Assembly (NCBI GenBank): GCA_018824205.1
Contig: JAHJGX010000162.1
Coordinates: 1 to 53,312 of the forward strand
Direction: 5' to 3'
Length of the DNA: 53,312 nt
Source: a bacterium
GTDB lineage: Bacteria > Fidelibacterota > UBA2242
Shown here: positions 4,156-33,574 of the stretch, piece by piece
Layout: each line of letters opens with the position of its first letter
Numbering within the stretch: position 1 is the first letter of the stretch
The notes under the pieces: model-generated
Told to the model about the DNA's origin: nothing
The model's database searches: none
What the model saw: the letters and a program-made list of their open reading frames with translations, nothing else
Program-made: the position numbers and the translations under genes

Positions 4156-4158
4156 GGA

Positions 4159-4901: not shown

Positions 4902-4926
4902 ACCCAAAAATAAGAAGGAGAAGATT

Positions 4927-6762: not shown

Positions 6763-6807
6763 TACGAATGCGAAATAAACAATTCAAAATTTTTAACAAA
6801 AAGGAGT

Positions 6808-7269: not shown

Positions 7270-7340
7270 CCTTTGGAAAGGTATCGGGAAAATGAGCGGG
7301 CGATGGCAGTGAGCAATGTTAGTAACCCGAGGGGAAAGTT

Positions 7341-8204: not shown

Positions 8205-8218
8205 GATGGGAGAGAAAA

Positions 8219-8506
8219 ATGGGCAAGCACACACTCAAATTGTATGTCACCGGTCAAACTCCACGGTCGCAACGGGCGATTGCCAATATCAGGGAAATCT
8301 GCGAAAAGGAGACTGATGGTGAATACGAATTAATCGTCATTGATGTATTAGAGAATCCGCAACTCGCGGAAGATGAAAAGATTATCGCCACACCGACACT
8401 GGTCAAGTTTCTACCGCCGCCTCTGCGCCGGATTATCGGTGATCTGTCCAATCAGGAAAAAGTATTGCTTGGGTTGGATTTATTCCCAAATAAAAAAAAT
8501 AGATAA
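8219..8506 (+). CDS. kaiB: Circadian clock protein KaiB (KaiB3-like)
   Basis: [47 protein letters not shown]. Confidence 0.97.
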
Positions 8507-8523
8507 CCGGAAGGATAATTGTT

Positions 8524-10035
8524 ATGGAACCGAAAGAACAAATAAATACGATGATTAAACTGGAAACAGGGATTCCAGGCTTTGATTTTATTTCTCATGG
8601 CGGACTTCCGATGGGTCGAACAACCCTGGTTGCCGGTACTTCCGGCAGCGCAAAAACCGTTTTTGCAACACAATATTTAGCGGAAGGCATTATCCAATTT
8701 GATGATTCGGTCGTTTTCGTCACTTTTGAAGAATCACCGAAAGACATTCGTAGAAATATGATCGGATTTGGCTGGGATATTCAGAAATGGGAAGACGAAG
8801 GGAAATGGACCTTTGTGGATGTGTCGCCGGAACCGGGAATGGAAGTTCTGGAAAGCGGGTCCTATGACCTGGGCGCTTTATTAGCCCGGATCGAGCACGC
8901 CATCAATAAAGTCAATGCCAAACGATTATCCATGGATTCGATTGGCGCCATTTTCAGCCAGATAACCGACAGCAGTATCGTCCGTTCGGAACTGTTCCGG
9001 ATCGTTTATGCCCTGAAAGAATTGGGAGTAACTGCTATCCTGACCGCGGAAAGGACCCAGGAGTACGGTGATATAGCCCGGTATGGCGTTGAAGAATTTG
9101 TCACTGATAATGTCATTGTTGTACGAAATGTACTGGAGCAGGAAAAACGGCGCCGGACTATCGAAATTCTGAAATTCCGGGGAACAATGCATCAGAAAGG
9201 CGAATACCCGTTTACGATTATTCCTGGTGAAGGAATTATCATTATTCCCTTATCCGCTATCGAATTGAAACAGAAATCTTCCACCCTCCGAATTTCATCC
9301 GGGAATGCTGAAATGGATAAAATGTGTGGCGGCGGTTTTTTTCGGGATTCGATTATTCTGATATCCGGCGCGACCGGCAACGGCAAGACCCTGATGGTGA
9401 CTGAATTCATCAATGGCGGCGCTAAAAATAAGGAACGCTGCCTGTTATTTGCCTTTGAAGAAGGCCGTGAACAATTACTCCGTAATGCCAGCGGCTGGGG
9501 AGTCGATTATGAAAAATTGGAAGAAGAAAATAGATTGAAAATAGTCGCTGTCTATCCGGAAGTTGCCGGGCTCGAGGATCACCTGATTACCATGAAAAAG
9601 GAAATTGATAAATTTAAACCCACCCGGGTGGCGATCGATAGCCTCTCGGCGCTGGAACGGATATCTTCTATCAGAGGGTTCCGGGAATTCGTGATTGGTT
9701 TGACCTCCTTTATTAAACACAAAGAAGTTGTGGGCTTATTTACGGCCACTACGCCCACCCTGTTGGGTGGAACATCTGTGACAGAGGCTCATATTTCGAC
9801 AATCACAGATTCGATTATATTACTGCGTTATGTGGAGATGTTTGGTGAAATGCACCGGGGCATCACGGTTCTGAAAATGCGCGGTTCGATGCACGACAAG
9901 GATATCCGTGAATACACCATTGACGGCACCGGGATGCATATTGGCAAACCGTTCCGCAATATCAGTGGTATTCTGTCCGGTAATCCGATGATCAGTACAG
10001 CTTCTGAAGTAGATCGAATCAAGGATCTTTTTTAA
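8524..10035 (+). CDS. kaiC: Circadian clock protein KaiC (KaiC3-like, double-domain)
   Basis: Walker A GTSGSAKT and GATGNGKT; EE pairs (TFEES, AFEEG); phosphosite segment HISTITD; KFRG/KMRG; short tail GILSGNP...SEVDRIKDLF. Confidence 0.97.
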   Translation: MEPKEQINTMIKLETGIPGFDFISHGGLPMGRTTLVAGTSGSAKTVFATQYLAEGIIQFDDSVVFVTFEESPKDIRRNMIGFGWDIQKWEDEGKWTFVDVSPEPGMEVLESGSYDLGALLARIEHAINKVNAKRLSMDSIGAIFSQITDSSIVRSELFRIVYALKELGVTAILTAERTQEYGDIARYGVEEFVTDNVIVVRNVLEQEKRRRTIEILKFRGTMHQKGEYPFTIIPGEGIIIIPLSAIELKQKSSTLRISSGNAEMDKMCGGGFFRDSIILISGATGNGKTLMVTEFINGGAKNKERCLLFAFEEGREQLLRNASGWGVDYEKLEEENRLKIVAVYPEVAGLEDHLITMKKEIDKFKPTRVAIDSLSALERISSIRGFREFVIGLTSFIKHKEVVGLFTATTPTLLGGTSVTEAHISTITDSIILLRYVEMFGEMHRGITVLKMRGSMHDKDIREYTIDGTGMHIGKPFRNISGILSGNPMISTASEVDRIKDLF

Positions 10036-10100
10036 TCTGATTTTAATCCATAAAAAAGATGGTTTTCAGATCATTAAATCATCCCTTATTCGGAGGATAA

Positions 10101-10568
10101 ATGACTAAAGAAATAAAATCAGAGCGGCAAAATATAAAAATTGTACTGATCGAAGACAGCACCAGTGACGCCCGGATTATCTATGAATTACTGGAAGATA
10201 ACAAAAGCGTTGATTATACGATCAAATGGCATACGACCCTGGCAGCGGGTCTGGATCACTTAAAAACTTCAGAATGTGATATTATTTTCTCGGATATGCA
10301 TCTTCCCGATGCCGCCGGACTGCATATTGTTGAGATGATTTATCACTCGCATCCGAACATTCCGATCATTGCATTGTCCAGAATCTATGATAAAGATACT
10401 GAATGGCAATCGAAAAACCTGGGAGCACAGGATTTTTTGCTGAAAGACGGACTTGACGGTATTTTATTAACCAAAGTGATCAAATATGCTATTGACCGGT
10501 GCCGGAGGGAATATGAACTCCGAAAATCCCGGGAATCTCTTCAAAAGATTGTGTGGCGAATACCTTGA
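10101..10568 (+). CDS. Response regulator receiver protein, probably 3'-truncated by the repeat element
   Basis: REC (IEDS, FSDMHLPD, FLLK), then linker ELRKSRESLQKIV running into the 39-bp repeat. Confidence 0.8.
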   Translation: MTKEIKSERQNIKIVLIEDSTSDARIIYELLEDNKSVDYTIKWHTTLAAGLDHLKTSECDIIFSDMHLPDAAGLHIVEMIYHSHPNIPIIALSRIYDKDTEWQSKNLGAQDFLLKDGLDGILLTKVIKYAIDRCRREYELRKSRESLQKIVWRIP

Positions 10569-10711
10569 AAAGGTGAAATTAATGTATCGATGTGGCGAAT
10601 ACCTTGAAAAGGTGAAATTAATGTATCGATGTGGCGAATACCTTGAAAAGGTGAGATCAATGTATCTATGTAAGTCAGAAGTGTTCTTTTCACCTTTTCA
10701 AGGTGCAATTA
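10552..10711 (+). repeat. Dispersed repeat copy 2 (two tandem 39-bp units plus tail)
   Basis: Units start at 10561 and 10600; the tail from 10639 ends TTTCACCTTTTCAAGGTGCAATT; same orientation as copy 1. Confidence 0.95.
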
Positions 10712-10753
10712 ATTCAAGGTGCGTAACTTGAAAAAAATGAAACGTGAGGTTCT

Positions 10754-12958
10754 GTGATGATAACAAAATTTGATATACAAAGAGAAAAAAACAAAATTCT
10801 GATAATGGCGACACTTTTAGTTATCTGTTGTTTTTTAACCTATTATTTTCACGTGGTATTAAAAAGCGGCACGGTTTTTACTCACTTCTTTTATATTCCG
10901 ATTATCCTGGCGTCGGTCTGGTGGCAAAGAAAAGGCCTGGCTGTGGCTGTGTTTTTAGCGGTATGGCTGCTTCTAAGTCACTTCTTATTTCGAGTCGGCT
11001 TGGAGACAATCAATGATTTAATTCGTGCGCCCATGTTTATCGCTGTTTCCCTGGTGGCTGCTCTTTTAAGTGAGAAACTTGGGAAGGCGGAAGGAGGCCT
11101 GCGGGAGACCCGCGATTATTTAGATAAATTGATCACCTATGCAAACGCCCCCATTATCGTCTGGAACCCTGATTTCAGGATTACACGGTTCAACAAAGCC
11201 TTCGAGCGACTTACCGGCTATGCATCCGGCGAGGTTATCGGCAAAGAACTGCGCCTGCTTTTCCCTGAAATAAGCCGGAATGAGTCCCTGGGCAGGATCG
11301 AGCAAACAGCGGGCGGTGAATTTTTGAAATCGGTGGAAATACCAATTCTTCGAAAAGATGGGGACGCCCGGCTGGCGCTATGGAACTCGGCAAATATTTA
11401 CGCGGAGGACGGCAAGACTCTTGTGTCTACTATCGCGCAAGGCATCGATATCACCGAGCGTAAACTATCTGAAAAAGCTATTGCGGCGTCGAAAGCTTAT
11501 GCTGAATCCATCATACGGAACTTCTTAGACACACTCATCGTGGTTGATCCCGAAGCAAAAATAGAGACCGTGAACCCGGCGACCTGTGATTTATTGGGCT
11601 ATACCGAAGAAGAGCTCCTCGGTCAGCCCGTAAGTATTATTTTTGCAGCAGCAGCAGCAGAAGAAGTTCTTCGCTTTTTCCAATTTTTCCTAGAACCCAA
11701 TAAAGCAGAAGCATTCGACCCACAAAATACCGTTCGCAATCGTGAACTCAATTACAAAACCAAAGATGGGCGACTCATTCAAATGTCATTTAACGCCAGT
11801 GTGCTGACCGATGAAGCGGGCAATATCACGGGTGTAGTTGCGGGAGCCAAAGATATTACAGATATAAAGCGTGCAGAAGCAACAATAAAAAAAGAGAGGA
11901 ATTTCTCAAAAAACATAATAACTACCGTCCCGGAGTCCTTACTCGTTGTTGATAAGGATTTAAGGATAAAGAGTGCCAATCGTTCATTTTATGAAACATT
12001 TAAAATTGAACCGGAAAATACGATCGGCGCTTCCATAACCGATATATTAGGGAATGACAAAGGAAAACTCAGCGCTGAACTTAAAAGGCTATTTGGAACT
12101 GAAGATATGCTGGAGAATTACGAGTTACACTATAAGTCAGAAAAAATAGATTCACCCCGTGAAGCACGAGAACTTACTTCACAGTGTGAACGGATATTCA
12201 ATGTAACCGCGCGAAGAATAATAATTGTAGAAGAAGAAGAAGAAGAAGAAGAAGAAGAAGAAGAACTGGTTGTACTGAGAGACATCACTGAGCGCAAGCG
12301 GGCGCAGGAGCAAATCGAGGCATCGCTCAGCGAGAATGATGTGCTTTTGAGGGAAATTCACCATAGGGTTAAAAACAACCTCCAGGTTATTTCCAGCATA
12401 CTTGATATGTGCAGGATGCGAACCCATGACCAGCAGGCTATAGATTTGTTCACAGATGTCCGGGACAAAATCCATACCATGGCTCTTATCCATTCGCAAC
12501 TCTATCGAAGCAATAGAGTTGCTCAAGTAAACATAGGAAACCATGTCCGGGAGATGGTTGACTATCTGTCGAAAGTTTATGTAACAAATGCAAAATTGAT
12601 TACCCCTGTTATTGAATACTCTGACATTTACCTTTCTGTAATCCAGGCTATCCCCTGTATTCTTGCCTTACACGAGATTATTTCCAACGCCTTCAAACAT
12701 GCCTTCAAGGAGGACAAAGGGACCATTAAAATATTCATAAAGAGGTTGGATGATGACACAGTTTTTATAAGAATTAAAGATGACGGTATTGGTATCCCAG
12801 AAGAAATTGACATTTATAAAACCAACAGCCTGGGTCTAAAGTTACTCAGAAGTCTGGTTCAGAAACAGCTAAAGGGGAAAATACAGATTAATCGAAATAA
12901 GGGTACAGAGTTTATTGTAGAATTTAAAATCTTAGAATGTAAAGAAAAATATGTGTAG
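10754..12958 (+). CDS. Membrane sensor histidine kinase, 3 PAS plus HisKA_2-type kinase
   Basis: About four N-terminal TM helices; three PAS ending DITERK/DITDIK; EIHHRVKNNLQ; EIISNAFKHAF, DDGIGI, SLGLKL. Confidence 0.93.
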   Translation: MMITKFDIQREKNKILIMATLLVICCFLTYYFHVVLKSGTVFTHFFYIPIILASVWWQRKGLAVAVFLAVWLLLSHFLFRVGLETINDLIRAPMFIAVSLVAALLSEKLGKAEGGLRETRDYLDKLITYANAPIIVWNPDFRITRFNKAFERLTGYASGEVIGKELRLLFPEISRNESLGRIEQTAGGEFLKSVEIPILRKDGDARLALWNSANIYAEDGKTLVSTIAQGIDITERKLSEKAIAASKAYAESIIRNFLDTLIVVDPEAKIETVNPATCDLLGYTEEELLGQPVSIIFAAAAAEEVLRFFQFFLEPNKAEAFDPQNTVRNRELNYKTKDGRLIQMSFNASVLTDEAGNITGVVAGAKDITDIKRAEATIKKERNFSKNIITTVPESLLVVDKDLRIKSANRSFYETFKIEPENTIGASITDILGNDKGKLSAELKRLFGTEDMLENYELHYKSEKIDSPREARELTSQCERIFNVTARRIIIVEEEEEEEEEEEELVVLRDITERKRAQEQIEASLSENDVLLREIHHRVKNNLQVISSILDMCRMRTHDQQAIDLFTDVRDKIHTMALIHSQLYRSNRVAQVNIGNHVREMVDYLSKVYVTNAKLITPVIEYSDIYLSVIQAIPCILALHEIISNAFKHAFKEDKGTIKIFIKRLDDDTVFIRIKDDGIGIPEEIDIYKTNSLGLKLLRSLVQKQLKGKIQINRNKGTEFIVEFKILECKEKYV
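11645..11659 (+). repeat. In-frame (GCA)5 microsatellite
   Basis: Encodes AAAAA within the second PAS domain. Confidence 0.9.
12151..12190. repeat. REP-like palindrome within coding sequence
   Basis: TTCACCCCGTGAAG-N12-CTTCACAGTGTGAA; arms match at 12 of 14 positions. Confidence 0.7.
12230..12265 (+). repeat. In-frame (GAA)12 microsatellite
   Basis: 12 perfect GAA codons giving poly-Glu12. Confidence 0.98.
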
Positions 12959-14540
12959 AATAATTATTGTTGACGATGAGGTGATCATAATAACGCAATT
13001 GGAGGAACACCTTGTATCTATGGGATATGAAGTCCTCGGGAGTGCCACTTCCGGAGAAGAAGCCATAGACTTAGCCAGGCGCCTCAGGCCCGATATAATC
13101 CTGATGGATATAGTTATGCCGGGAAAATTAGACGGTATTGATGCTTCCGAAAGGATTAAAGCTGAACTGAATATTCCGGTTATATTCCTGACCGCTTATG
13201 CGGATGATAAATTCGTAAATAGAGCAAAGAATACTGAACCTTTCGGATATATACTAAAACCGTTTCAAGAAAAAGAAATAAAAGCGGCTATTGAAATCGC
13301 CATTTACAAAAAAAGTATAGAGCAACAGTTGCGTGAGTCGGAAGAGAAATATCGGTCCCTGGTAAATACAGCTAACGATGCCATCATCTCTGTTGACAGC
13401 CGCGGAAACATCGTTTTCTGGAACTCTGCGGCAGAGAAATTTTTTGGCTATCCAGCTGATGAAACAATTGGCAAGCCGGTTACCGTCATCATACCCGAAC
13501 GGTTCCGTGAAGTTCATCAAAAGGAAATGATGAGGGTAGTTTCAACGGAAAAATCAAACATTATCGGAAAAACGGTTGAGATAACTGGGCTCAGAAAAGA
13601 TGCCAGCGAATTTCCTCTAGAGATTTCATTTGCATCCTGGAAGACAAGGGAGGGTGTTTTCTTTACAAGTATCGTACGCGACATTACCGAGCGCAAGCAG
13701 GCAGAGGAAGCCTTAAAGGTCAGCCAGGAAAGTTTCCACAATATAGTGGAAAAAAACACAGCCGGAATTATCGTTACAGACAGGAAAGGGATAATACGTT
13801 TTGTAAATCCTGCCGTAGAAGACATTTTTAACCGCAAGTCTGAAGAACTTGTGGGTGATTTGTTTGGTTTTACAGTGATAGAGGGTGAAGTAACTAATAT
13901 TGATATTATCCGCAAGGGTAACGATATGGGCATCGGGGAAATACGTAATACGGTGACAGAATGGGATGGTGAATTTGCCTATCTTATTATGATTAACGAT
14001 ATTACCAAGCGCCAGCAGGCCGAAGAGGCTCTACGGCAGAGTAAAGATTACATTAACAATATAATAAGTTCAATGATCGAAAGCCTTATTGTCACTAACC
14101 GGGATGGCATTATTAAAAAAGTCAACAGAGCCACCTGGGAGCTTTTTGGCTATGAAGAAAAAGAATTCATTGGTAAACCTATAAGTATGCTTTTTGCAGC
14201 AGAAGAATTCAAAACTTTAGGAATTGATGAGATTCTTAAGAAAGGCTTTATCCGAAATGTAGAGAGGGTCTATCTTTCAAAAGATGGTAGAATTATTCCT
14301 ATACTTTTTTCGGGTTCGGTAATGCGTGATATTGATAAGAATATTCAGGGGATAGTCTGTTTAGCTGAAGATATCACCGAGCGTAAGAAGGCAGAGGATG
14401 AATTGAAAAAACATATGCATGAGCTGGAGCGGTTTGAACATGTTACTATTGGAAGGGAATTGAAAATGATTGAATTGAAAAATAAAATAAAAGAATTAGA
14501 GGAGCAGAGGAAGATGGAAAAAGTTAATGATGAAACGTGA
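12951..14540 (+). CDS. REC-PAS-PAS-PAS protein with C-terminal coiled coil, no catalytic output
   Basis: IVDDE, LMDIVM, GYILKPF; three PAS; ends GRELKMIELKNKIKELEE. Confidence 0.9.
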   Translation: MCRIIIVDDEVIIITQLEEHLVSMGYEVLGSATSGEEAIDLARRLRPDIILMDIVMPGKLDGIDASERIKAELNIPVIFLTAYADDKFVNRAKNTEPFGYILKPFQEKEIKAAIEIAIYKKSIEQQLRESEEKYRSLVNTANDAIISVDSRGNIVFWNSAAEKFFGYPADETIGKPVTVIIPERFREVHQKEMMRVVSTEKSNIIGKTVEITGLRKDASEFPLEISFASWKTREGVFFTSIVRDITERKQAEEALKVSQESFHNIVEKNTAGIIVTDRKGIIRFVNPAVEDIFNRKSEELVGDLFGFTVIEGEVTNIDIIRKGNDMGIGEIRNTVTEWDGEFAYLIMINDITKRQQAEEALRQSKDYINNIISSMIESLIVTNRDGIIKKVNRATWELFGYEEKEFIGKPISMLFAAEEFKTLGIDEILKKGFIRNVERVYLSKDGRIIPILFSGSVMRDIDKNIQGIVCLAEDITERKKAEDELKKHMHELERFEHVTIGRELKMIELKNKIKELEEQRKMEKVNDET

Positions 14541-14623
14541 GACGTGAGAAGTGAACTATTAATTTTGGTACTCCCGGCAAAGTCAGGATCGGGGAAATTT
14601 AGGCAATTAAATATGGTTGATGG

Positions 14624-16249
14624 TTGATGGTAAAAGAAAAAATTATGGTTGTTGAAGATAACCGCCCCGTAGCAGAGTTCATCCAGGATACATTAAGAAG
14701 TTCGGGATATGATGTTTCGGATATTGTCTCTTCCGGTGAAGAAGCCGTAAAAAAAGCGGAACAGCTGTCCCCGGATCTCGTGTTAATGGATATCATTTTA
14801 GAAGGGAAGATGGATGGTATAGAAGCATCAAAACAAATACGTGACCGTTTCAATATCCCTGTCATTTACCTTACCGGACATGCAGAAGAAAATTTATTAC
14901 AAAGGGCTAAGATAACAGAGCCATTTGGGTATATATTAAAGCCATTTGAAGGAAAAGAATTACATACAACCATTAAAATGGCTATTTACAAGCATAAGAA
15001 AGATAATGAATTGAAAAAGCGCATGCTTGAGTTGCAGGACTCTCGTACAGCTATGCTAAATGTTCTTGAAGATGTGACTGAAGCCCGTGAAGCCCTTGAG
15101 AAATCCGACCGGTTAAAGAATGTTTTCATAGGCATGATGTCTCATGAGTTAAGAACACCCCTGAATGTAATATTGGGATATGTCGATATATTATCTACGG
15201 ATTTGAGAAGCTTAGTTAATGAAGAGAGGCGAGAAATGTTTGACGCAATCGTCCGGGGTGGTGAACGGCTAAAAAAATTAGTTGACGATATTATGGATAT
15301 ATCTCAGATTGAAGCCGACCAGATGAAATTATATATGCAACCCATTGAGGCGGATGATCTGGTTAAAAATTGTGTCAATGAAATTGTAATTCCTGCGAGA
15401 AATAAGAGCTTAGATATCATTGAAAAATATCATGGGGACAAGACGCACATCAAAGTTGACAGGCTTCGCTTTCCCCAGGCTCTTGGAAATATTTTACAGA
15501 ATGCTGTGAAATATACCAATAAAGGCAGTATCAATATAACTACAGAAGTAGAGAATAATATTTATACTATTACTGTAAAAGATACCGGAAAAGGTATTAA
15601 AAAGGATTTTCTGCCATTTATTTTTGCGCTCTTCCGTCAAGAAGATGAAGGTTATAAACGTAAATATGAAGGCGCTGGATTAGGTTTATATGTAAGTCAA
15701 CGATTGTTTACATCAATGGGAGGGAAAATAGATGTGGATAGCGATGAAGGCCGAGGAACTGAATTTGTACTTTCCTTTCCCGCTTCTACGGAAAAAGTTC
15801 TTATAGTAGAAGAGGAAAAACCGGAATTGCCAGATGTTAAGAGACATGAAGAAGTAAAAAAAGAGGTAGAGAGAAAACAAACCGTGCTGGTATTAGAAGA
15901 CAATCCGGCTAATGTTGATTACATACAATTTTTATTAAGGAAATTGCAAGTGGACTATGTTACGGCAGCTTCCGGAAAGGATGCGCTTGAATGTTTAGAA
16001 GAAAATTCCGTTGATGGGATGCTAATTGATATTAGTCTTGCTACCGGGATGTCGGGAGTTGAATTTTTAGAGAGGGTGAAAACGCAAGATCGTTTCAAGA
16101 ATATACCCAAGATTGCAGTCACAGCTCATGCAATGAAAGGTCAGCGTGAGGAGTTTATTAAGACCGGTTTTGATGATTATTTACCAAAACCGTTTAAATT
16201 GAAGGACCTTCGGGAATTACTTGCCCGCACTTTAAAGGGTTATTCATAA
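14624..16249 (+). CDS. Hybrid histidine kinase REC-HisKA-HATPase-REC
   Basis: MSHELRTPLN, NILQNAVKYT, DTGKGI, GAGLGL; receiver domains at both ends. Confidence 0.93.
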   Translation: MMVKEKIMVVEDNRPVAEFIQDTLRSSGYDVSDIVSSGEEAVKKAEQLSPDLVLMDIILEGKMDGIEASKQIRDRFNIPVIYLTGHAEENLLQRAKITEPFGYILKPFEGKELHTTIKMAIYKHKKDNELKKRMLELQDSRTAMLNVLEDVTEAREALEKSDRLKNVFIGMMSHELRTPLNVILGYVDILSTDLRSLVNEERREMFDAIVRGGERLKKLVDDIMDISQIEADQMKLYMQPIEADDLVKNCVNEIVIPARNKSLDIIEKYHGDKTHIKVDRLRFPQALGNILQNAVKYTNKGSINITTEVENNIYTITVKDTGKGIKKDFLPFIFALFRQEDEGYKRKYEGAGLGLYVSQRLFTSMGGKIDVDSDEGRGTEFVLSFPASTEKVLIVEEEKPELPDVKRHEEVKKEVERKQTVLVLEDNPANVDYIQFLLRKLQVDYVTAASGKDALECLEENSVDGMLIDISLATGMSGVEFLERVKTQDRFKNIPKIAVTAHAMKGQREEFIKTGFDDYLPKPFKLKDLRELLARTLKGYS

Positions 16250-16793: not shown

Positions 16794-17105
16794 CTATAAC
16801 TTCTTTTCAGACCGTTGGTATTCTTTTTTAAGAGCAGCTTCAAAGTCACTAATCAGATTTTTCAGGTAATCAATATTTTCGCTTAAAGATGCGGTCTCGA
16901 TTTTGCTTCCCATTTTGCTGAAATCGTCAAAACCGTAACCACCAGCCGCTCCTTTTAGGCCATGTCCAAATAGGCGAAGTTTTTCAAAATCTCGATTGTC
17001 TAGATTTGATTTTACTTCCCGAAGGGATTCCAATAAATATTTCAAATACTTCCGGATTAATAATTGAAATTCAGGATCATCTAAATATTCGTTATCTACA
17101 TCCAT
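16794..17105 (-). CDS. Stand-alone Hpt phosphotransfer protein
   Basis: GHGLKGAAGGYGF matches the HxLKGxxG motif; GGAG RBS. Confidence 0.9.
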   Translation of the reverse strand: MDVDNEYLDDPEFQLLIRKYLKYLLESLREVKSNLDNRDFEKLRLFGHGLKGAAGGYGFDDFSKMGSKIETASLSENIDYLKNLISDFEAALKKEYQRSEKKL

Positions 17106-17690: not shown

Positions 17691-18179
17691 TTAGATTTTT
17701 TTGACGTAAATGTACTTGGCGTCACCTGGCGCATAAAAATCGGTGAGAACGGCTGCTTCCGTGCATGCACAACGCAAATAGAAGGCGCGGGTGGATTCAT
17801 ACTGATCGCGTCCCGAAGTCTCGATATATACACGAGTCCCCCCTAACCGGCGAATCGTTGTTTCGCTTTTCGTCAGTAGCAGTTTGCCTATTCCGGCCCC
17901 GCGATAATCATTATGAACGGCAATCCAATACAGATCATAGCTTTCCTGAGTTGCAGGAATGGAACCAAAACAGGCATAGCCGACTGTTTTTCCAGCAGCT
18001 TCAGCAAATATGAAATGATACCCGCTTTCTATACCTTTTTCCAGACACTCGGTAACCAGCTCGACGGCGATATCTATTTCATCCTGGGAGAAAAAACCGG
18101 TTGAACTGACGATTTCCCGAACATGTTCCGGATCTTCCGGAAGGACTGTATCGCGCCATTCAAGATGAAGAGCTTGCAT
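17691..18179 (-). CDS. GNAT family N-acetyltransferase
   Basis: AGGAG RBS before ATG 18179; YDLYWIAVHNDYRGAGIGKLLL acetyl-CoA motif; ETSG; TRAFY. Confidence 0.9.
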   Translation of the reverse strand: MQALHLEWRDTVLPEDPEHVREIVSSTGFFSQDEIDIAVELVTECLEKGIESGYHFIFAEAAGKTVGYACFGSIPATQESYDLYWIAVHNDYRGAGIGKLLLTKSETTIRRLGGTRVYIETSGRDQYESTRAFYLRCACTEAAVLTDFYAPGDAKYIYVKKI

Positions 18180-19947
18180 TTTTTGTTGCTCCTGTTTTGT
18201 GATTGTCATAATGATCATTAAAACCATGCCATAAACCTGTAAAAAAATGACGGGCATTGATACCGAGCGAGCGGACGGCGTACCCGCCTTCCTGGACGAC
18301 GAGAAAGGGCAAACCCAGCATTCCAATCATATAACCATTCTGCTCGAAATCTTTTGTGTTCAAACTCCATGAACCGGTCGGATCTCCTTTGGCGGTATCG
18401 AGTCCCAGCGCAATAATAACAAAGCGAGGCCAGAAGCGCTGGATACGCTTAAGCGCCTTGTCTAAAATTTTCCGGTATTGCTCGCCATTCAGACTTTCCG
18501 GCTGCGGCAGGTTGAGATTAAAACCGGCTCCGGCGCCTTCGCCAATTTCATCAGCAAATCCGCTGAAGTATGGGTAAGCGTGGCGGGGATGTCCGTGAAT
18601 GGAAACCGTCAGGACGTCTGCACGGTCATAAAAAATACTCTGGTGTCCGTTTCCATGATGGTAATCAATATCCAGTATCGCCACTTTTCCATGTTGGCTT
18701 AAATAATGGGCTGCTACCGATGCGGAGTTAAAATAGCAGAATCCTCCAAACACTTGCCGCTCAGCGTGGTGACCGGGAGGGCGAACCAATGCATAAGTAA
18801 TGTAATATCCTTTTAATAATTGATCCGCTGCCGTCAGGGCGCAATCAACAGCACGCTGGGCAGCCTGGAATGCATTCTGATTTAGTGGTGTAAAGGTATC
18901 AATACAGTAATACCCTGCCCGAATCGGTAATTCTTTCGGCGGACGGGCAGCATTACGGATCGGGAATACATAGGGATAGACGGATTTATGATCAGGTACA
19001 TTTTTACAGACGTTTTTCAGGTATTTAACGAAACCCGGATCGTGGATCGCGGTGATATGTTTTTCCGGATAATGGTGCGGCTGAAATTGCTTGAACAGTC
19101 CGGTTGGGATAATTTCCTTCAAAATAGATTTAATCCGTACGGGAGATTCAATATAACCTCTTTCATGGATATGATGAATTGCGTGTTTGTCGTTAACGAC
19201 CAATGCAATCGGCAGATCGGTGACTGTGGATGTTTTAATGAATGGAATATTGTCCGGTTTAATATATTTAAACGGACGCAGACGGACCGGGTTATCCTGA
19301 AAGGATTCAACGACCATTGTAACATATTCCGGCGGGCAAAGCTGAGCGTATTTTCGTTCCAGGATTGCCCGGGTGATTTCCCGGGCGTGTTTACGTTTTA
19401 ACGGTTTGCCCTGGCCGATATCGTCAAACACCAGATAGGGCGCGCAAGAGTCTTTTGGATCGACGGGAGTTTCATAGGCGGTATTGCAGATTGGTCGGGC
19501 GCCATAACGCTCATAAAAACGCAAGCGGGCAGCATTTTGTTTCAGAAATTCGGATTTGCAGATTGCCGGATCATCGGGCAAACATTCAAAAAAGATTCCG
19601 ACAACGCCAAAGTGGAGTGCCGTGTCGCGTACTTTTTCATAAAGCGCCCCACCTATTCCACCACTGGTTTTTTGCAGAGCCGCGGCAATATAATCCAGGT
19701 AAGCAAAGTTAAAGTCGGCAGCATAGTGCAGCAGAGCAAAACCGCGAATATGTCCGTTCTCGTCGTCAGCCACGAACAAAGTTGATTGAAATTTATGTTT
19801 TACCGGATCCCTGAGATGCTCGGGAAGCTTATCAATGTCCCGTTTATTCAGGTCCCGGAATTGCATTTTCAAAATTTCCTGGACCTGGGAAATAGCCTGG
19901 CGATTGATTGGCAAACTATCGTCGTAAATACGTCGGATACGAAACAA
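18160..19947 (-). CDS. GNAT-like domain fused to histone deacetylase/acetylpolyamine amidohydrolase domain
   Basis: TTG start at 19947 (MFRIRRIYDD) with AAGGA RBS; N-terminal YLDYIAA..GGIGGALY..RFYERYG; C-terminal RPPGHHA, GFCYFN, DIDYHHGNG, QEGGY. Confidence 0.9.
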   Translation of the reverse strand: MFRIRRIYDDSLPINRQAISQVQEILKMQFRDLNKRDIDKLPEHLRDPVKHKFQSTLFVADDENGHIRGFALLHYAADFNFAYLDYIAAALQKTSGGIGGALYEKVRDTALHFGVVGIFFECLPDDPAICKSEFLKQNAARLRFYERYGARPICNTAYETPVDPKDSCAPYLVFDDIGQGKPLKRKHAREITRAILERKYAQLCPPEYVTMVVESFQDNPVRLRPFKYIKPDNIPFIKTSTVTDLPIALVVNDKHAIHHIHERGYIESPVRIKSILKEIIPTGLFKQFQPHHYPEKHITAIHDPGFVKYLKNVCKNVPDHKSVYPYVFPIRNAARPPKELPIRAGYYCIDTFTPLNQNAFQAAQRAVDCALTAADQLLKGYYITYALVRPPGHHAERQVFGGFCYFNSASVAAHYLSQHGKVAILDIDYHHGNGHQSIFYDRADVLTVSIHGHPRHAYPYFSGFADEIGEGAGAGFNLNLPQPESLNGEQYRKILDKALKRIQRFWPRFVIIALGLDTAKGDPTGSWSLNTKDFEQNGYMIGMLGLPFLVVQEGGYAVRSLGINARHFFTGLWHGFNDHYDNHKTGATKNASSSS

Positions 19948-19958
19948 GGTTTTATCCT

Positions 19959-20945
19959 TTAATTGGATTGAATGTTGTTTGGGTCTGCAAGAATACGAAC
20001 GACTACCTGTTCGAAAGTCAGGGCAGCCTGACGGGTGGCTGCAATGAATCCGCTGTCTGGTGAGATACAGGGATTTGAATTGATTTCCAGAATCCAGATA
20101 TTGTTTTGGGCGTCTACTCTGAAATCCACCCGGGCATAGCCGTGCAGTTTGAAAACTTCCCAGCATCGTAATGCCATTTCGGTTAACTGTTTCAACAATG
20201 GCTGATCATTTGAATCAAATTGAAAGCTGCGGATAGTATTTTTATATTCAAAGGAATTCTCGTCCCATTTGGCTTGATAGCCAACAATTTTTGGCTTGGA
20301 TTCGGGAAAATCCACAAAGCGAATTTCCGCTGCGGGCAGCACCTCCGGTGCGCCTGAATTTGCCAGGATTGACAGATTAAATTCCCGACCGGGAATATAG
20401 GCTTCCGCAAAACATTCACCGAATCGTGCCGAACGGTTTTTCAGGTTTTTTTCCAGTTGTTGAATATTATTTACAATGGAATTTTCGTCTATTCCGATAG
20501 AGGCATCATCACAAACCGGCTTGATAATGCAGGGTGGCTTCAAATTGAATTGACCGGATGTGATATTGTCCTGTGTCAACCAGGGAGGAGTTGGCAGATT
20601 TGTCGAGCGCATCAATTCTTTTGTGAGCAGTTTATTTGTGGTAAGATACAAAGTATGGGCACTGCCGCCGGTGTAGGGAATGTTTAGATGTTCCAGTAAT
20701 GTTGGGGCAAAGTGGATGAATTTTTCCACGCCACTAATAGATTCAACCAGGTTGAATACACTATCCGGATTGATCTGTTTGATTGAATCGGCGGCTGTCT
20801 GAAGATCCAACGTTATGGGTATTGAGCTGACGTTGTGTCCCAGTTTTTGAAGAGCTTCCGAAACAAAATTGACCTGGGCTAGTACATCCAGATCATCCTG
20901 GCTTGTTGCGGTGCTGACGTCATTATAGAGTATACTGATTTTCAT
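19959..20945 (-). CDS. ATP-grasp ligase, D-Ala-D-Ala ligase-like (2)
   Basis: VFNLVE, IPYTG, IIKPVCDDASIGI, YIPGREF, YARVDFR, LEINSNP. Confidence 0.9.
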   Translation of the reverse strand: MKISILYNDVSTATSQDDLDVLAQVNFVSEALQKLGHNVSSIPITLDLQTAADSIKQINPDSVFNLVESISGVEKFIHFAPTLLEHLNIPYTGGSAHTLYLTTNKLLTKELMRSTNLPTPPWLTQDNITSGQFNLKPPCIIKPVCDDASIGIDENSIVNNIQQLEKNLKNRSARFGECFAEAYIPGREFNLSILANSGAPEVLPAAEIRFVDFPESKPKIVGYQAKWDENSFEYKNTIRSFQFDSNDQPLLKQLTEMALRCWEVFKLHGYARVDFRVDAQNNIWILEINSNPCISPDSGFIAATRQAALTFEQVVVRILADPNNIQSN

Positions 20946-20952
20946 GACTGCG

Positions 20953-21933
20953 TCAATGTAAATTCAATCGTTCGGAAGCACTGTCCAGAATCATCTGAAA
21001 TAATTGTTTATAACTGATCCCATATTTTTTACAGATAATCACCAAATCCGAGCGAACGGGGTTGATACCGGCCAATGGATTGATCTCCATCAGGTTCGGG
21101 ACTCCGTCGTCATCGGCACGGAGGTCAATTCGTCCGGCATCCCGGCAGCCGATTCCACGCCAGGCTTCCAGGGCAATTTCTTCAGCCTGCTGAGCAGTTT
21201 TATCGTCAACGCGCAGGTATTTGACTTTTGTCTCGTAATTTTCCTTGTTCTCATAGGAATAGGCGCCCGGTTCGGCATTACTGTTCAGGATAACTTCAAC
21301 AACTCCCACCGATCTCGCTCTGGATCCGGTACCGACAATGCCAACCGTAAATTCTCTGCCCGGCAGATAGGATTCAACCAAAACAGCTTGCCGGAATTCC
21401 GAAAGCAGGCGCTGACAGGTTTCATGCAGTTCAGTTTGGGTCTGAATGATCGAGTGTTCCGAGATACCTTTTCCGGTTCCTTCGGCAATGGGCTTTGCGA
21501 ACAGTGGAAAGGGTAGATCAACCGTTTCAATGTCGGCCTCTGAATGAATTTCCGCAAATGCAGGAGTTGGGATACCGAGATCGCGCAAGACTCGCTTTGT
21601 CATTCCTTTATGGAGTGTCAGTGCCAGCACCAAAGGATCAGAAAAAGTATAAGGGATATTATAAGCATCCAGCAGACCCGGTACCTGGGCTTCACGAGCA
21701 ATGCCATGCAAACCTTCCGCAATATTAAAAACCAGGTCCCAGCGATCGCCATTATTCAGACGCCTGGTGAGATTCCAGATATTACCAATCCGTTCAGTTT
21801 GATGGTTTAATTGTTGGAGAGTGGTTTCAATAGCTTCGATTGTGTCAATCCGGTCGAATTCAGCGGTATCTTCTTCGCTGTACCCGAGCTCAAGATAATC
21901 CTCCCGCAGATCGTAGGTAATCCCGATATTCAT
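20953..21933 (-). CDS. ATP-grasp ligase, D-Ala-D-Ala ligase-like (1)
   Basis: VFNIAEG, IPYTFSD, KPIAEGTGKGI, YLPGREF, GRIDLR, MEINPLAG. Confidence 0.9.
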   Translation of the reverse strand: MNIGITYDLREDYLELGYSEEDTAEFDRIDTIEAIETTLQQLNHQTERIGNIWNLTRRLNNGDRWDLVFNIAEGLHGIAREAQVPGLLDAYNIPYTFSDPLVLALTLHKGMTKRVLRDLGIPTPAFAEIHSEADIETVDLPFPLFAKPIAEGTGKGISEHSIIQTQTELHETCQRLLSEFRQAVLVESYLPGREFTVGIVGTGSRARSVGVVEVILNSNAEPGAYSYENKENYETKVKYLRVDDKTAQQAEEIALEAWRGIGCRDAGRIDLRADDDGVPNLMEINPLAGINPVRSDLVIICKKYGISYKQLFQMILDSASERLNLH

Positions 21934-21944
21934 GTAAATCCTGT

Positions 21945-23351
21945 TTATTTTTTGGAACTATTCTGAATGTTTTTGCCGACTGTACCCCCTGAATCGGGAT
22001 ATCTGAAAATCTTGCCTTCGTAATTCCTCAGTAACAAATCATCTCCATCCCGTCCGATAACGTACTCCGGTAAGAGTGGGATTTTACCGCCACCGCCGGG
22101 AGAATCAATCACAAATGAGGGTACCGCATAACCTGATGTGAAACCCCGCAGACCGGCAATGATTTCCAGCCCTTTATCAACAGCAGTCCTGAAGTGGGCT
22201 GAACCTTTAACCGGATCGCATTGATAGAGATAATAGGGTTTGACCCGAATTTTCATTAATCCCTGTGTCAGACGCTTCATGGTCTCTACATTATCGTTGA
22301 TACCTTTCAGCAGAACAGTCTGGCTCCCTAAAGGTAAACCGGCGTCAGCGAGGCGGTTACAGGCCTGGATCGTTTCCGGTGTCAATTCATCGGGATGCGT
22401 AAAGTGAATACTCATCCATAATGGATGATATTGTTTAAGCATGTTGACAAAAGAATTTGTAATCCGCTGCGGCAGTACGACCGGCACTTTCGTACCTAGC
22501 CGGATAACTTCCAGATGCGGTATCTGACGTAAACGTCTTAGCAGCCATTCCAATTTATTGTTACCCAGAGTCAGGGGATCGCCGCCGGATAGAATCACAT
22601 CCCGCACCTCTTTGTGGGCTTCGAGATATGCAATCGATTTTTCCCAGTTCTGGGTATTAAAACGGTGTTCGGTGCGGAGATTTCCGACGAGACGTGAACG
22701 GGTACAGTATCGGCAATAAACAGCACAGAATCCGGTCGTAAGAAACAGGGCCCGATCAGGATAGCGGTGAATAAGTCCCGGTACCGGCGAATCTTTATCT
22801 TCAGCCAGCGGATCGATCGATTCTTCAGGTGATACCTGATATTCGCCACTGACCATGATGACCGATTTACGGATTGGCTGTTGCGGATCATCCGGATCGA
22901 CAAGACTGGCATAATAGGGTGTAATCGCTACCGGTAATGATCCGCTATGGCGCAGGATAGCATCTCGCTCATCTGATGAGAGATGAACGATACTTTCTAA
23001 ACCGGCGAGGTCAATGATCCTGTGCCGGATCTGCCAGCGCCAGTCATTCCATTGGGTATCCGATGCTTCCGGAAAAAACCGCTGCCGGAATTGTTGTGCT
23101 CTGTAACTTATTGTAAGATTTGCCTTACTGACATCCTCGGATCGAGGTTTCCCTACTTTCCATTCACCCGTTATAATAATATCCCCGGCCTGAGAAACCT
23201 GCAGGTCAGAGTAAAATGATTTTGAAAGGGATTTTACTGGTTTATGTGTTACATTGGGCGGGGCGGGGCTAGATAGTTCTGATTGATCAATCGATCCCCT
23301 GCGCGAATCGGGGGGTTCTTCTTTTTCTTCGTTATAAATTTTTTCGCTCAT
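21945..23351 (-). CDS. kamA: KamA-family radical SAM/PLP enzyme (lysine 2,3-aminomutase-like)
   Basis: WNDWRWQ, HRYPDR, CAVYCRYCTR, SGGDPL, PYYLYQCD, DSPGGGGKIP. Confidence 0.92.
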   Translation of the reverse strand: MSEKIYNEEKEEPPDSRRGSIDQSELSSPAPPNVTHKPVKSLSKSFYSDLQVSQAGDIIITGEWKVGKPRSEDVSKANLTISYRAQQFRQRFFPEASDTQWNDWRWQIRHRIIDLAGLESIVHLSSDERDAILRHSGSLPVAITPYYASLVDPDDPQQPIRKSVIMVSGEYQVSPEESIDPLAEDKDSPVPGLIHRYPDRALFLTTGFCAVYCRYCTRSRLVGNLRTEHRFNTQNWEKSIAYLEAHKEVRDVILSGGDPLTLGNNKLEWLLRRLRQIPHLEVIRLGTKVPVVLPQRITNSFVNMLKQYHPLWMSIHFTHPDELTPETIQACNRLADAGLPLGSQTVLLKGINDNVETMKRLTQGLMKIRVKPYYLYQCDPVKGSAHFRTAVDKGLEIIAGLRGFTSGYAVPSFVIDSPGGGGKIPLLPEYVIGRDGDDLLLRNYEGKIFRYPDSGGTVGKNIQNSSKK

Positions 23352-23681
23352 GTGGTTTTTAAAATTCCTTAAATATTCAATAACTTTTCAGACATTTACA
23401 TCCTCGAGAAAAAGAGAAAAAACATAACGCCAAGTAATGTATACAGGTTTAACACTTTTCCAAGAATATTTTTAATAATTTTCACAAGAAATATGAATAT
23501 TTTTTCATGTGTGTGATCTGTGCCGGGTGTAAATAAAGAAAAACGATTAAAACCGATTTTTTATAATCGGAATTTATGAAACCTTTAGTGTAACTTTCCC
23601 TTGTTTCCAAATCTGATCTGACTATTTTACCAGATACATACATGGTAAATCAATGTTTCAAATGTAGTATTCGGGTCTTTA

Positions 23682-24536
23682 ATGGCATTTAACAGGAAAA
23701 AATCCGGTTTTTATCTGCATCTGGCGGTAGTTCTGTTTGGACTGGCGGGTTTACTGGGAAAACTGATCACCGAATCCCCGCTGACAATTGTATTTTTCAG
23801 GACTTCGATAGCAGCAATCATTCTCCTGGGGATGATGCGATATACCGGTGAAGAAATTAAAATTAAGTTCCGTCGGGAATGGCATCTGTTTTTGTTGATG
23901 GGCATTCTGCTGGCATTGCACTGGCTCAGTTTTTTCCAGGCAATCAAGGTTTCCACGGTGGCGATTGCTTTGCTGACATATGCCAGTTTCCCGGTGTTTG
24001 TCACTTTGATCGAGCCGGTTGTTTTAAAAACGAGGCTGGAGGCAAAGGATATTCTCTTTGCGCTTGTCGTTATGGCCGGTTTATTGATTATCGTACCTGA
24101 ATTTGACTTCCATAATCAGTATACTGTTGGTGTATTTTGGGGAATCCTGTCCGGGTTCAGTTTTGCATTGCTGACGGTTCTCAACAAACTCATGACGGTC
24201 ACACATTCTTCCCGGAAAATTGCCTTTTACCAAAATGGTATTGCTACTTTAATAGTATTGCCGTTTTTCCTGATTACACCCAAATGCCTGTCACTTGCGG
24301 ATATCGGATATTTAGTTATTCTGGGCGTCTTTTGTACGGCTCTGGCACATACACTGTTTATCGCCGGCATGCGGTATGTCCGGGCATTCACCGCCGGAAT
24401 AGCGGCAGCTTTGGAACCGGTTTACGGAATGATACTGACGCTGATAATTTTACAGGAAGTGCCGTTATTGCGGACAGTGATCGGGGGATTGATTATTTTA
24501 GGGACCATTGGAATAGTTACATTTCGTGCGGATTAA
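23682..24536 (+). CDS. EamA/DMT family transporter
   Basis: ~10 TM helices in two EamA repeats; HWLSFFQAI, LEPVYG. Confidence 0.88.
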   Translation: MAFNRKKSGFYLHLAVVLFGLAGLLGKLITESPLTIVFFRTSIAAIILLGMMRYTGEEIKIKFRREWHLFLLMGILLALHWLSFFQAIKVSTVAIALLTYASFPVFVTLIEPVVLKTRLEAKDILFALVVMAGLLIIVPEFDFHNQYTVGVFWGILSGFSFALLTVLNKLMTVTHSSRKIAFYQNGIATLIVLPFFLITPKCLSLADIGYLVILGVFCTALAHTLFIAGMRYVRAFTAGIAAALEPVYGMILTLIILQEVPLLRTVIGGLIILGTIGIVTFRAD

Positions 24537-25549
24537 AACCGAATCCGGTTCCGGCCGGACTGCTTGGCTTCGTACAATTTTTTATCAGCCTGCTGAAAGA
24601 AATCATCTTTGGTTTTGACGGTTTTTGAATTGACCGCAGCGATCCCGCCACTGATGGTTGTATGGATTTTATTACCGGAAAGACTGCTGAATTGATAGTC
24701 TTCACAGCGTTTCCGGATACGTTCGCCAAGTACAATAGCGCCTTCCAGATCGGTCCCCGGCAGAATTAGCACCAGCTCTTCACCGCCGTAGCGGCAGGGT
24801 ATATCGATATCCTTCCGCACGGCCGCTTTAAGAATTTCGGCGAGTTCTTTGAGAATAATGTCGCCCTGCTGATGCCCGTAAGTGTCATTGATATTTTTGA
24901 AATGATCGATGTCATATACGATTATGGCGAGTTCAGAGTCGACACGTTTCAGACGGGTGATCTCTTCCTGCAGACGGATATCAAAAAAGCGTCGTACATA
25001 CAGGCCGGTCAAACCGTCGATGGTGGCCATCTGAAAAAGACGGGCATTCTCTATCGCTGCTGCGATCAGAGTCGTAATAACAGTAAAAATTTCTTCGTGA
25101 TTTCTGGTTATCTCAATATTCGGGTGATGTTCATAATTAATAAAACCGATGACTTTATTGCCGGTCCCAACAAGGGGCAGGCAGGTACATTTCCGGTTTT
25201 TCGAAAATATATTAAACGTCGGAATCGGAAAATTACTTTTTCGAAGGCAATGATATTCAGCGGGCTGCTTGGTATCCAGGACATCGGCCAGTGGTGTGTT
25301 TTTGATTGGTATTTGGCTTGTGTCTGTTTTGTAATTGCCATCGATCATGGCGCCAATGACACTCACAGTTTTTCCGTCATCATTCAACAGTAACAGCGAC
25401 AGGTTCCGACTGGAACTGAAGTCCGCAATGGTGCTTATTCCATGAAAAACAACCCGTTCCAAATCCAGTTCGGCGACTAACTGACGGGTTGCGTATTTCA
25501 AGGTTTGCAAGGTTATCTCGATGTCATAAGTGTCTGATGTTTTAGTCAT
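24533..25549 (-). CDS. GAF-GGDEF diguanylate cyclase
   Basis: AIENARLF, DGLTGLY, DIDHFKNINDTYGH, RYGGEEL, KQSGRNR. Confidence 0.93.
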   Translation of the reverse strand: MTKTSDTYDIEITLQTLKYATRQLVAELDLERVVFHGISTIADFSSSRNLSLLLLNDDGKTVSVIGAMIDGNYKTDTSQIPIKNTPLADVLDTKQPAEYHCLRKSNFPIPTFNIFSKNRKCTCLPLVGTGNKVIGFINYEHHPNIEITRNHEEIFTVITTLIAAAIENARLFQMATIDGLTGLYVRRFFDIRLQEEITRLKRVDSELAIIVYDIDHFKNINDTYGHQQGDIILKELAEILKAAVRKDIDIPCRYGGEELVLILPGTDLEGAIVLGERIRKRCEDYQFSSLSGNKIHTTISGGIAAVNSKTVKTKDDFFQQADKKLYEAKQSGRNRIRF

Positions 25550-33381: not shown

Positions 33382-33574
33382 AATATAGTCCTCTCGGTTA
33401 AAAAACTGTCGCTTCAAATATAATTCTATCGATTGGGAATGCAAACAGGAGAATGTCTAAATGAAAAACATGCAATAAACATAATATATGAGAATATTTC
33501 GTAAATATACTTGATAACACTTGGTGTATGTTGTATATTACAATCGTGAACGAGAAATAAACGAAGGAATAAAG

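Follow-up and report, generated by a model that had tools for sequence, protein, structure and literature searches.

In methanogens and some bacteria, a lysine 2,3-aminomutase (AblA) and an acetyltransferase of the GNAT type (AblB) form a pathway to N-epsilon-acetyl-beta-lysine. In the PylB/PylC system, lysine is rearranged by a radical SAM enzyme before a Ddl-like ATP-grasp ligase joins the product through an amide bond, and in the Ngg/AsnO pathway a GNAT and an ATP-grasp ligase make N-acetylglutaminylglutamine amide (NAGGN) from glutamine-based substrates. Here, we analyze an operon at positions 17691-23351 of a 53,312-nucleotide stretch of DNA, hereafter the window, from a bacterium of the lineage Fidelibacterota, UBA2242 (contig JAHJGX010000162.1 of assembly GCA_018824205.1). 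The operon encodes, head to tail, a KamA-family aminomutase, two Ddl-like ATP-grasp ligases that we call AG1 and AG2, a fusion of a GNAT domain to a deacetylase of the acetylpolyamine amidohydrolase (APAH) type, and a small GNAT. On balance, we lean toward the view that these five genes form one biosynthetic unit for an undescribed small amide metabolite that is derived from beta-lysine and carries a switchable acetyl group.

The host genome assembly, in 275 contigs, totals 3.89 Mb and is 94% complete. All five genes lie on the minus strand: kamA (21945-23351, 468 aa), AG1 (20953-21933, 326 aa), AG2 (19959-20945, 328 aa), the GNAT/APAH fusion (18160-19947, 595 aa) and the small GNAT gene (17691-18179, 162 aa). 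The first four genes are separated by 11, 7 and 11 bp, and the last two overlap by 20 nt, where the fusion gene ends and the small GNAT gene starts, in agreement with an earlier note, made from the DNA letters and their translations, that had described five minus-strand genes with gaps of 11 bp or less or overlaps. Pfam recovered every domain named in that note: LAM_C (5.2e-21) and Radical_SAM (1.6e-11) in KamA, Dala_Dala_lig_C in AG1 (1.4e-25) and AG2 (3.5e-25), Hist_deacetyl (9e-76, residues 265-569) and a weak Acetyltransf_1 (1.7e-4, residues 39-126) in the fusion, and Acetyltransf_1 (5.2e-12) in the small GNAT. The longest ATG-initiated frame of the fusion opens at 20166 and overlaps AG2 by approximately 200 nt; the start is likely the TTG at 19947, from which the length above is counted and which has AGGA 8-11 nt upstream. 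The small GNAT most likely starts at the ATG at 18179, preceded by AGGAG.

Relatives of the fusion protein were found in at least 589 species-representative genomes when one genome per species was scanned with this protein as the query, and 80 of these loci were kept for neighborhood counts. All five genes occurred together in 46 of the 80, the fusion stood alone in 22, and 12 were partial, 10 of these having short flanks. Where at least 5 kb was available on both sides (36 loci), the corresponding numbers were 25, 9 and 2. The five-gene arrangement is non-random, with the same five genes together in 46 of 80 loci and in 25 of 36 well-flanked ones. The carriers, as labeled by their submitters, span at least six phyla and include Desulfobacterota, Planctomycetota, Bacteroidota, Ignavibacteriales, Dehalococcoidales and Gammaproteobacteria; one locus with all five genes (L047) belongs to a named strain, Desulfatitalea alkaliphila M08but. 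The earlier note had proposed neighborhood conservation as a check and a lack of it as grounds for abandoning its proposal, and the genes were thus found to travel together across phyla. The cassette is nevertheless patchy even inside its own genus, where it was present in two of six other genomes.

When open reading frames from the 80 loci were clustered into families of at least 70 aa, the only recurring families were the five genes and a putative metal-binding CxxCxxCC protein (PF03692). The latter is 160-200 aa long and could serve the radical SAM enzyme as a redox partner. Its gene is placed between those for KamA and AG1 at several loci of Planctomycetota and Desulfobacterales (for example, L023:5213-5761 and L044:5333-5917); the window has no copy.

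We then asked where the remaining genes reside in genomes with a solitary fusion gene. In all five of the genomes that we checked, out of nine with well-flanked loci, KamA, AG1 and AG2 were encoded together elsewhere, and in three of the five a GNAT was also visible, on another contig. Within a sample of 201 genomes of the phylum, AG1 was present in 20 and the full-length fusion in 8, six of which also had AG1. Because fusion-alone genomes hold the other genes elsewhere, and because AG1 outnumbers the fusion in the phylum sample, we conclude that KamA, AG1, AG2 and the small GNAT are a conserved four-gene core and that the fusion is an accessory module found in a subset of genomes.

A second type of cassette, with the order AG1-AG2-GNAT-KamA, was seen at seven loci (L007, L010, L017, L021, L025, L026 and L056). 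Its proteins share 28-39% (ligases), 45-54% (KamA) and 58-64% (fusion) identity with those of the window, a pattern suggesting that change is slower in the fusion than in the ligases, or else that the fusion is passed between the two types of cassette.

Gene fusions also tie parts of the operon together. Among the best 120 longer relatives of AG1, 25 were KamA-AG1 fusions, two were AG1-AG2-GNAT fusions (P0062 and P0080), and 93, of 575-840 aa, contained ATP-grasp families only. Four of these 93 were inspected by eye; three were AG1-AG2 fusions (P0001, P0018 and P0106) and one was a CxxCxxCC-AG1-AG2 fusion (P0019). A KamA-AG1 fusion is carried by Syntrophobacteraceae bacterium DRH4 (P0047), and locus L055 has an 827-aa KamA-AG1 reading frame.

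KamA aligns with the Clostridium lysine 2,3-aminomutase 2A5H (E 3.6e-134) across residues 89-453, leaving an N-terminal extension of approximately 90 aa and no counterpart of the final 50 or so residues of the Clostridium enzyme. The cluster cysteines of the CxxxCxxC motif (C209, C213 and C216) correspond to C125, C129 and C132 of 2A5H, and R218 to Arg134. D379, within the motif YQCD, corresponds to Asp293, while D416 and K423, within VIDSPGGGGK, correspond to Asp330 and Lys337. We take Asp293 and Asp330 to bind the side-chain amine of lysine, Arg134 its carboxylate, and Lys337 the pyridoxal phosphate (PLP). The acidic residues in these two motifs, to which the earlier note had drawn attention, are thus confirmed as the equivalents of Asp293 and Asp330. 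Across 45 operon-linked KamA sequences, the two aspartates were kept in all 45, the PLP lysine in 44, and the cysteine and arginine positions in 43; the residues that are missing belong to sequences ending at contig edges.

KamA exceeds the cut-off of the NCBIfam KamA subfamily (TIGR00238; 351.6 bits vs 199.2). Its best equivalog is lys_2_3_AblA (TIGR03820), with 478.4 bits against a cut-off of 525.4; scores for the glutamate (429.6 of 650), arginine (395.8 of 600) and EpmB (260.3 of 369.3) equivalogs also fall below their cut-offs. The nearest named relatives, at 91% and 90% identity, are labeled Candidatus Marinimicrobia. KamA is predicted to be a lysine 2,3-aminomutase that supplies beta-lysine, with lysine as the best-supported substrate.

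Two further KamA-family proteins are encoded on other contigs of the genome, at L002:871-2760 (+; 629 aa) and L003:532-2739 (+; 735 aa). They score 341.2 and 351.5 bits against the subfamily cut-off of 199.2, fall far under every equivalog cut-off, and have N-terminal extensions of approximately 210-320 residues in which no Pfam family was recognized. A search of the genome for lysine 5,6-aminomutase (PF09043) found no match, although the control for that search also matched nowhere.

AG1 and AG2 are 25% identical to one another (BLASTP, E 7e-28), and AG1 belongs to a large family, with 755 representatives at E <= 1e-30 among clusters built at 50% identity. Against the two NCBIfam Ddl models, with cut-offs of 243 and 245.65 bits, AG1 scored 147.4 and 121.7 and AG2 scored 137.8 and 118.8. 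A separate Ddl on another contig of the genome reached 296.8 bits (cut-off 245.65) in a search that gave AG1 120.5 and AG2 118.2. Searches of the PDB with both ligases, including a profile search with AG2, returned Ddl first and no PylC, and the AG2 profile search returned no LysX.

We aligned 48 AG1 and 47 AG2 sequences with E. coli DdlB and the genome's own Ddl. Residues for ATP binding, magnesium binding and catalysis (K97, K144, E180, E187, K215, R255, D257, E270 and N272 in DdlB numbering) were kept in 47-48 of 48 AG1 and 46-47 of 47 AG2 sequences. The positions that we take to bind D-Ala in DdlB, Glu15, His63, Tyr216 and Leu282, have changed. AG1 carries alanine for E15 (47 of 48), glutamate for H63 (48 of 48), glutamate for Y216 (34 of 48) and aspartate for L282 (41 of 48). 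AG2 carries aspartate for E15 (36 of 47), glutamate for H63 (46 of 47), tryptophan for Y216 (47 of 47) and glycine for L282 (46 of 47), as well as cysteine for G276 (36 of 47). The genome's own Ddl retains E, H, Y and L at the four positions. The additional acidic residues in the pockets of AG1 and AG2 would be compatible with a cationic substrate.

A different explanation for the locus is that AG1 and AG2 are cell-wall D-Ala-D-Ala (or D-Ala-D-X) ligases, whether ordinary or variant, that just happen to lie beside a lysine-fermentation aminomutase. Pfam and NCBIfam do place both nearest to Ddl, and one source labels their relatives "D-alanine-D-alanine ligase". However, their scores are far under the Ddl cut-offs, a genuine Ddl is present elsewhere in the genome, almost every family member has other residues at the D-Ala-binding positions, and the ligases are fused to KamA and GNAT in many relatives. 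We therefore consider this explanation very improbable and, judging from their sequences, AG1 and AG2 are not the D-Ala-D-Ala ligases of the cell. The earlier note had named ligases forming only D-Ala-D-Ala as an outcome that would overturn its proposal; a separate Ddl and the altered D-Ala positions speak the other way.

A heterodimer of AG1 and AG2 was weakly supported by structure prediction, with a score of 0.60 compared to 0.00 for the best control. Three runs agreed in at least 93% of contacts, with partner pLDDT values of at least 85. The tool had been calibrated on 157 solved complexes, of which 116 reached the mark, and on 215 mismatched pairs, of which 2 did; a score of 0.60 or lower was obtained for only 18 of the 157 and for both of the passing mismatches.

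The deacetylase domain of the fusion has APAHs as its best solved relatives (9gkz, 1.8e-72; 6phr, 6.4e-67; 3q9b, 5.1e-63). All 51 aligned sequences share its zinc-binding and catalytic residues (H393, H394, D426, D428, H430, D517 and E553-G-G-Y556). In Graf et al. 2024 (PMC11532494), bacterial polyamine deacetylases fall within cluster 4, and a PIS gatekeeper motif is described for them. The fusion instead has D-P-T-G at residues 522-525, invariant in 51 of 51 sequences, where the aligned residues of 9gkz are D-P-I-S.

The N-terminal 245 residues of the fusion had no sequence match in the PDB at E <= 1. This domain was nonetheless modeled as a confident GNAT fold (pLDDT 92.1, pTM 0.89) that matched GCN5 and other GNATs (Foldseek E approximately 1e-7, TM approximately 0.7 by target), including the nourseothricin acetyltransferase 5c82. 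Two glycines in the region of the CoA loop, G97 and G99, are invariant, and the fusion protein as a whole was modeled at a pLDDT of 81.7. The small GNAT has an R-G-A-G-I-G motif and aligns over 153 residues (E 2.2e-38) with 2R7H, a structural-genomics entry titled putative acetyltransferase, DDE_3044 from Desulfovibrio desulfuricans; the accessible part of PMC8836040 names solely Dde_3047, as a phosphatase. BLASTP found no significant similarity between the small GNAT and the N-terminal domain of the fusion (best E 0.99).

The analysis establishes which genes are present, how they are conserved and fused, and that their catalytic motifs are intact; from this we infer the substrates, the order of steps and the product as follows. 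KamA, with its conserved active-site residues, would convert free L-lysine to beta-lysine. AG1 and AG2, probably paired and with pockets remodeled to be more acidic, would each form one ATP-dependent amide bond, a chemistry expected from their family, such that beta-lysine would be joined to one or two partners. The small GNAT would N-acetylate one amine of beta-lysine or of the conjugate, either protecting it during ligation or neutralizing the product. Where present, the fusion could act as an accessory acetyl switch, its deacetylase stripping the N-acetyl group from an aminoalkyl chain, for example that of an epsilon-acetyl-beta-lysyl moiety, and its GNAT domain adding it back, thereby setting the charge of the compound. 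Much of what the earlier note had proposed is retained here, namely a core of beta-lysine formation, two ATP-grasp ligations and reversible acetylation, while its osmolyte option is weakened by the habitats and the lack of AblB described below and export by the neighboring EamA protein finds no support. That note had also left room for the pathway being already characterized; full-text literature searches found no paper describing it, although a 2009 amidoligase survey and supplements lay outside their reach. PMC8674449, in its accessible part, merely lists lysine fermentation and has no bearing on the cassette.

Several points weigh against a dedicated pathway from beta-lysine to a small amide. 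Because the KamA score lies below the lysine equivalog cut-off (478.4 vs 525.4), ornithine or another basic amino acid may be the substrate. The comparison with DdlB is less certain toward the N terminus, at E15 and H63, where AG1 and AG2 carry insertions, and the passing score of the AG1-AG2 dimer may simply reflect likeness to solved Ddl homodimers. Two of the eight fusion-bearing genomes in the phylum sample (G062, 93% complete, and G134, 91%) have the full-length fusion and no AG1 at E <= 1e-50, so the fusion may have a separate role of its own. ATP-grasp ligases can also modify proteins, cell-wall precursors and sugars, and the acceptor may be a macromolecule. The contigs from RNA libraries presented below are compatible with expression and prove neither transcription nor a single transcript, as DNA can occur in such libraries. 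Finally, the product and substrates are predictions.

The possibility of a macromolecular acceptor deserves separate consideration. Here, beta-lysine or acetyl-beta-lysine would be ligated by AG1 and AG2 to a protein, to a peptidoglycan precursor, to a lipid or to a carboxylate of a polysaccharide, and acetylation would tune the charge of that protein or surface. ATP-grasp enzymes include protein-modifying and cell-wall side-chain ligases, such as RimK and D-aspartate ligase, and EF-P offers a known example of a protein that is beta-lysylated. The deacetylase family likewise includes protein lysine deacetylases, as indicated by PDB relatives and by PMC11532494. Against this, AG1 and AG2 both group with Ddl, an enzyme that acts on small molecules, rather than with RimK-type protein ligases, and no conserved target gene, glycosyltransferase or mur gene was found among the 80 loci. 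In addition, KamA is not EpmB (260.3 bits vs 369.3), and no EpmA scored above the cut-off in the genome, the best GenX match, in a 501-aa frame, reaching 246 against 286.9. We consider modification of a macromolecule unlikely.

To a similar degree, we doubt that the operon is an elaborated AblA/AblB pathway that makes N-epsilon-acetyl-beta-lysine, or an acetylated beta-lysine dipeptide, as an osmolyte under salt stress, with the deacetylase serving in its breakdown afterwards. Such a route would follow the AblA/AblB logic of a KamA working with a GNAT; lys_2_3_AblA is the best equivalog of KamA, many of the carrier genomes are labeled as marine sediment lineages, and in other bacteria a GNAT and an ATP-grasp enzyme make NAGGN, an acetylated dipeptide osmolyte. 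However, the AblB model TIGR03827 matched neither the small GNAT (E <= 1e-3) nor any other protein of the 94%-complete genome, whereas the control matched in 6 of 14 genomes. Habitat labels also weaken a reading based on salt: near-identical DNA occurs in sequencing runs labeled groundwater, lake water and biofilm, with 12 runs holding at least half of the sampled words (four rows may be the source of this DNA itself), and other carriers are labeled freshwater lake or groundwater. Two ligases and a polyamine-type deacetylase would also be superfluous for the known solute, and the patchy distribution noted within the genus is a further point against an osmolyte.

We also considered that the ligases might alternately or repeatedly extend a beta-lysine chain, yielding a cationic oligo-beta-lysine or a cyanophycin-like nitrogen store, with the acetyl group protecting the chain or conferring self-resistance. 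Some ATP-grasp ligases, such as RimK and cyanophycin synthetase, oligomerize their substrates, and the beta-lysine moiety of streptothricins is acetylated by certain GNATs; the nourseothricin acetyltransferase 5c82 is among the fold matches of the GNAT domain of the fusion. AG1 and AG2, by contrast, come without a primer-binding or Mur-ligase-type domain, and Ddl-type enzymes are not known to polymerize. No conserved depolymerase is found nearby; a PepE-like S51 peptidase of the window is not among the recurring families of the other loci. A polymer or oligomer thus seems decidedly improbable. The peptidase in question (32671-33444, minus strand) is a PepE-type S51 dipeptidase (NF003642, 289.5 bits vs 156) that lies 10 kb from the operon and shows no sign of linkage to it.

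Upstream of kamA, a 330-bp intergenic region (23352-23681) separates the operon from a divergent gene for an EamA-family transporter (23682-24536, plus strand). This region presumably holds the operon promoter. A sigma-70-like minus-strand site (23653-23624; TTGATT, 18 nt, TAAAAT, with TG) is a match to the consensus only, and no sigma-54-type TGGC-N8-TGC site was found upstream of kamA. Rfam searches were negative, both across the window at gathering score and upstream of kamA at E <= 1, and the kamA leader folds no better than shuffled sequences (z +0.85).

The region upstream also contains a 53-aa open reading frame (23482-23643), which together with two ATP-grasp enzymes and a GNAT, the gene pattern of microviridins, could suggest a graspetide cluster in which AG1 and AG2 are macrocyclases acting on a ribosomal peptide. 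Several observations make this the least probable of the explanations considered: the ligases are of the Ddl type, KamA retains its free-lysine-binding residues, the spacing of 11 bp or less between genes offers no space for a precursor gene within the operon, and no small family of at least 70 aa is conserved at the loci, a comparison that left out shorter frames.

The EamA protein is the candidate exporter mentioned above. Using tblastn (E <= 1e-10), we found an EamA relative near the operon in 0 of 80 loci, and the Hpt (16794-17105) and GAF-GGDEF cyclase (24533-25549) genes that flank the operon in the window were likewise conserved with it in 0 of 80. None of the five operon proteins matched a PADLOC defense family.

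Sequences from RNA libraries bear on whether the operon is expressed. Four metatranscriptome runs contained contigs 95-100% alike to the operon that together cover parts of all five genes, and in three of the four libraries a contig bridges the junction between kamA and AG1; parts of the operon that lack such cover are no evidence of silence. Contigs from two lake-water libraries have one extra G at position 21942, in the 11-bp spacer between kamA and AG1, along with many synonymous-looking differences, which points to closely related strains in those samples.

Elsewhere in the window, a run of signaling genes (3340-16249, plus strand) encodes CheR, CheB, PAS histidine kinases, a KaiC-like ATPase and several response regulators. 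An AAA_21 ATPase (AbiEii-like) followed by a RloB-like protein (33521-35471, plus strand) resembles a defense module. Further along lie genes for a radical SAM protein and, after it, two small HEAT-repeat proteins (46474-48360, minus strand), and a 1242-aa protein (49102-52830, plus strand) has four stretches of the ABC transporter substrate-binding family PF04392 (E 5.5e-181), an unusually long tandem.

Returning to the beta-lysine-derived amide that we favor, a broader and more tentative version is that the cassette produces a cellular cation of a new class. The product would be a beta-lysine-based pseudo-polyamine or short peptide, its charge set by a GNAT/APAH writer and eraser that act on a small molecule and not on proteins. 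It would serve bacteria of many phyla, mainly lineages from anoxic habitats, instead of or beside classical polyamines or compatible solutes. We regard this as conceivable rather than probable; if true, the fusions among KamA, AG1, AG2 and GNAT would mark a channeled assembly line. Whatever its exact structure, identifying the product would extend bacterial physiology by a new beta-amino-acid metabolite, assign a function to two large subfamilies annotated "D-alanine--D-alanine ligase", and explain why an acetyltransferase and a polyamine-type deacetylase occur in one polypeptide. The cassette is widespread, as judged by the number of species-representative genomes with a fusion relative and by the size of the AG1 family.

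Comparison with described systems places the cassette close to several of them. AG1 and AG2 share with the Ddl/VanA family, their nearest in sequence, its fold, its ATP, magnesium and acyl-phosphate machinery and, by a weak prediction, its dimer. They differ from Ddl in the residues at E15, H63, Y216 and L282, in scores below its cut-offs, and in being fused to KamA or GNAT, whereas the housekeeping Ddl is encoded separately. Bacterial APAHs are the best solved relatives of the C-terminal domain of the fusion, which shares with them a full set of invariant zinc-binding and catalytic residues. Unlike them, it is preceded by a GNAT domain of approximately 245 residues, too large to fit into the solved APAH chains with their 341-362 residues, and it is linked to a beta-lysine operon, not to polyamine catabolism. 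The PIS motif given in PMC11532494 is P-T-G in the fusion, in 51 of 51 sequences.

Systems that couple a rearranged or acetylated amino acid to a ligase offer a second set of parallels. Like PylB/PylC, the cassette joins a radical SAM rearrangement to a Ddl-like ligase; however, its KamA is an aminomutase and not a methylornithine synthase of the PylB type, PylC is not among the PDB matches of AG1 and AG2, and PylD is missing, with two ligases and acetylation enzymes instead. Like Ngg/AsnO, which we compared by description only, it would have a GNAT and an ATP-grasp ligase cooperate toward an N-acetylated small peptide, but that pathway has no aminomutase or deacetylase and uses another ATP-grasp subfamily. 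EpmB resembles KamA as a member of the same family that makes beta-lysine for ligation to an amine. Here the differences are a KamA score of 260.3 where EpmB requires 369.3, a genome in which no EpmA exceeds the cut-off, and ligases that are ATP-grasp enzymes rather than a lysyl-tRNA synthetase paralog.

A further parallel, in gene content and to the start of the proposed route, is AblA/AblB. The cassette departs from that pathway in a KamA that scores under the AblA cut-off, in a GNAT that is not AblB, in habitat labels of groundwater and lake water, and in two ATP-grasp ligases and a GNAT/deacetylase fusion that have no counterpart there. What the two share is a radical SAM enzyme of the lysine 2,3-aminomutase type in one operon with a GNAT, and beta-lysine is therefore a likely intermediate of the pathway that we propose.

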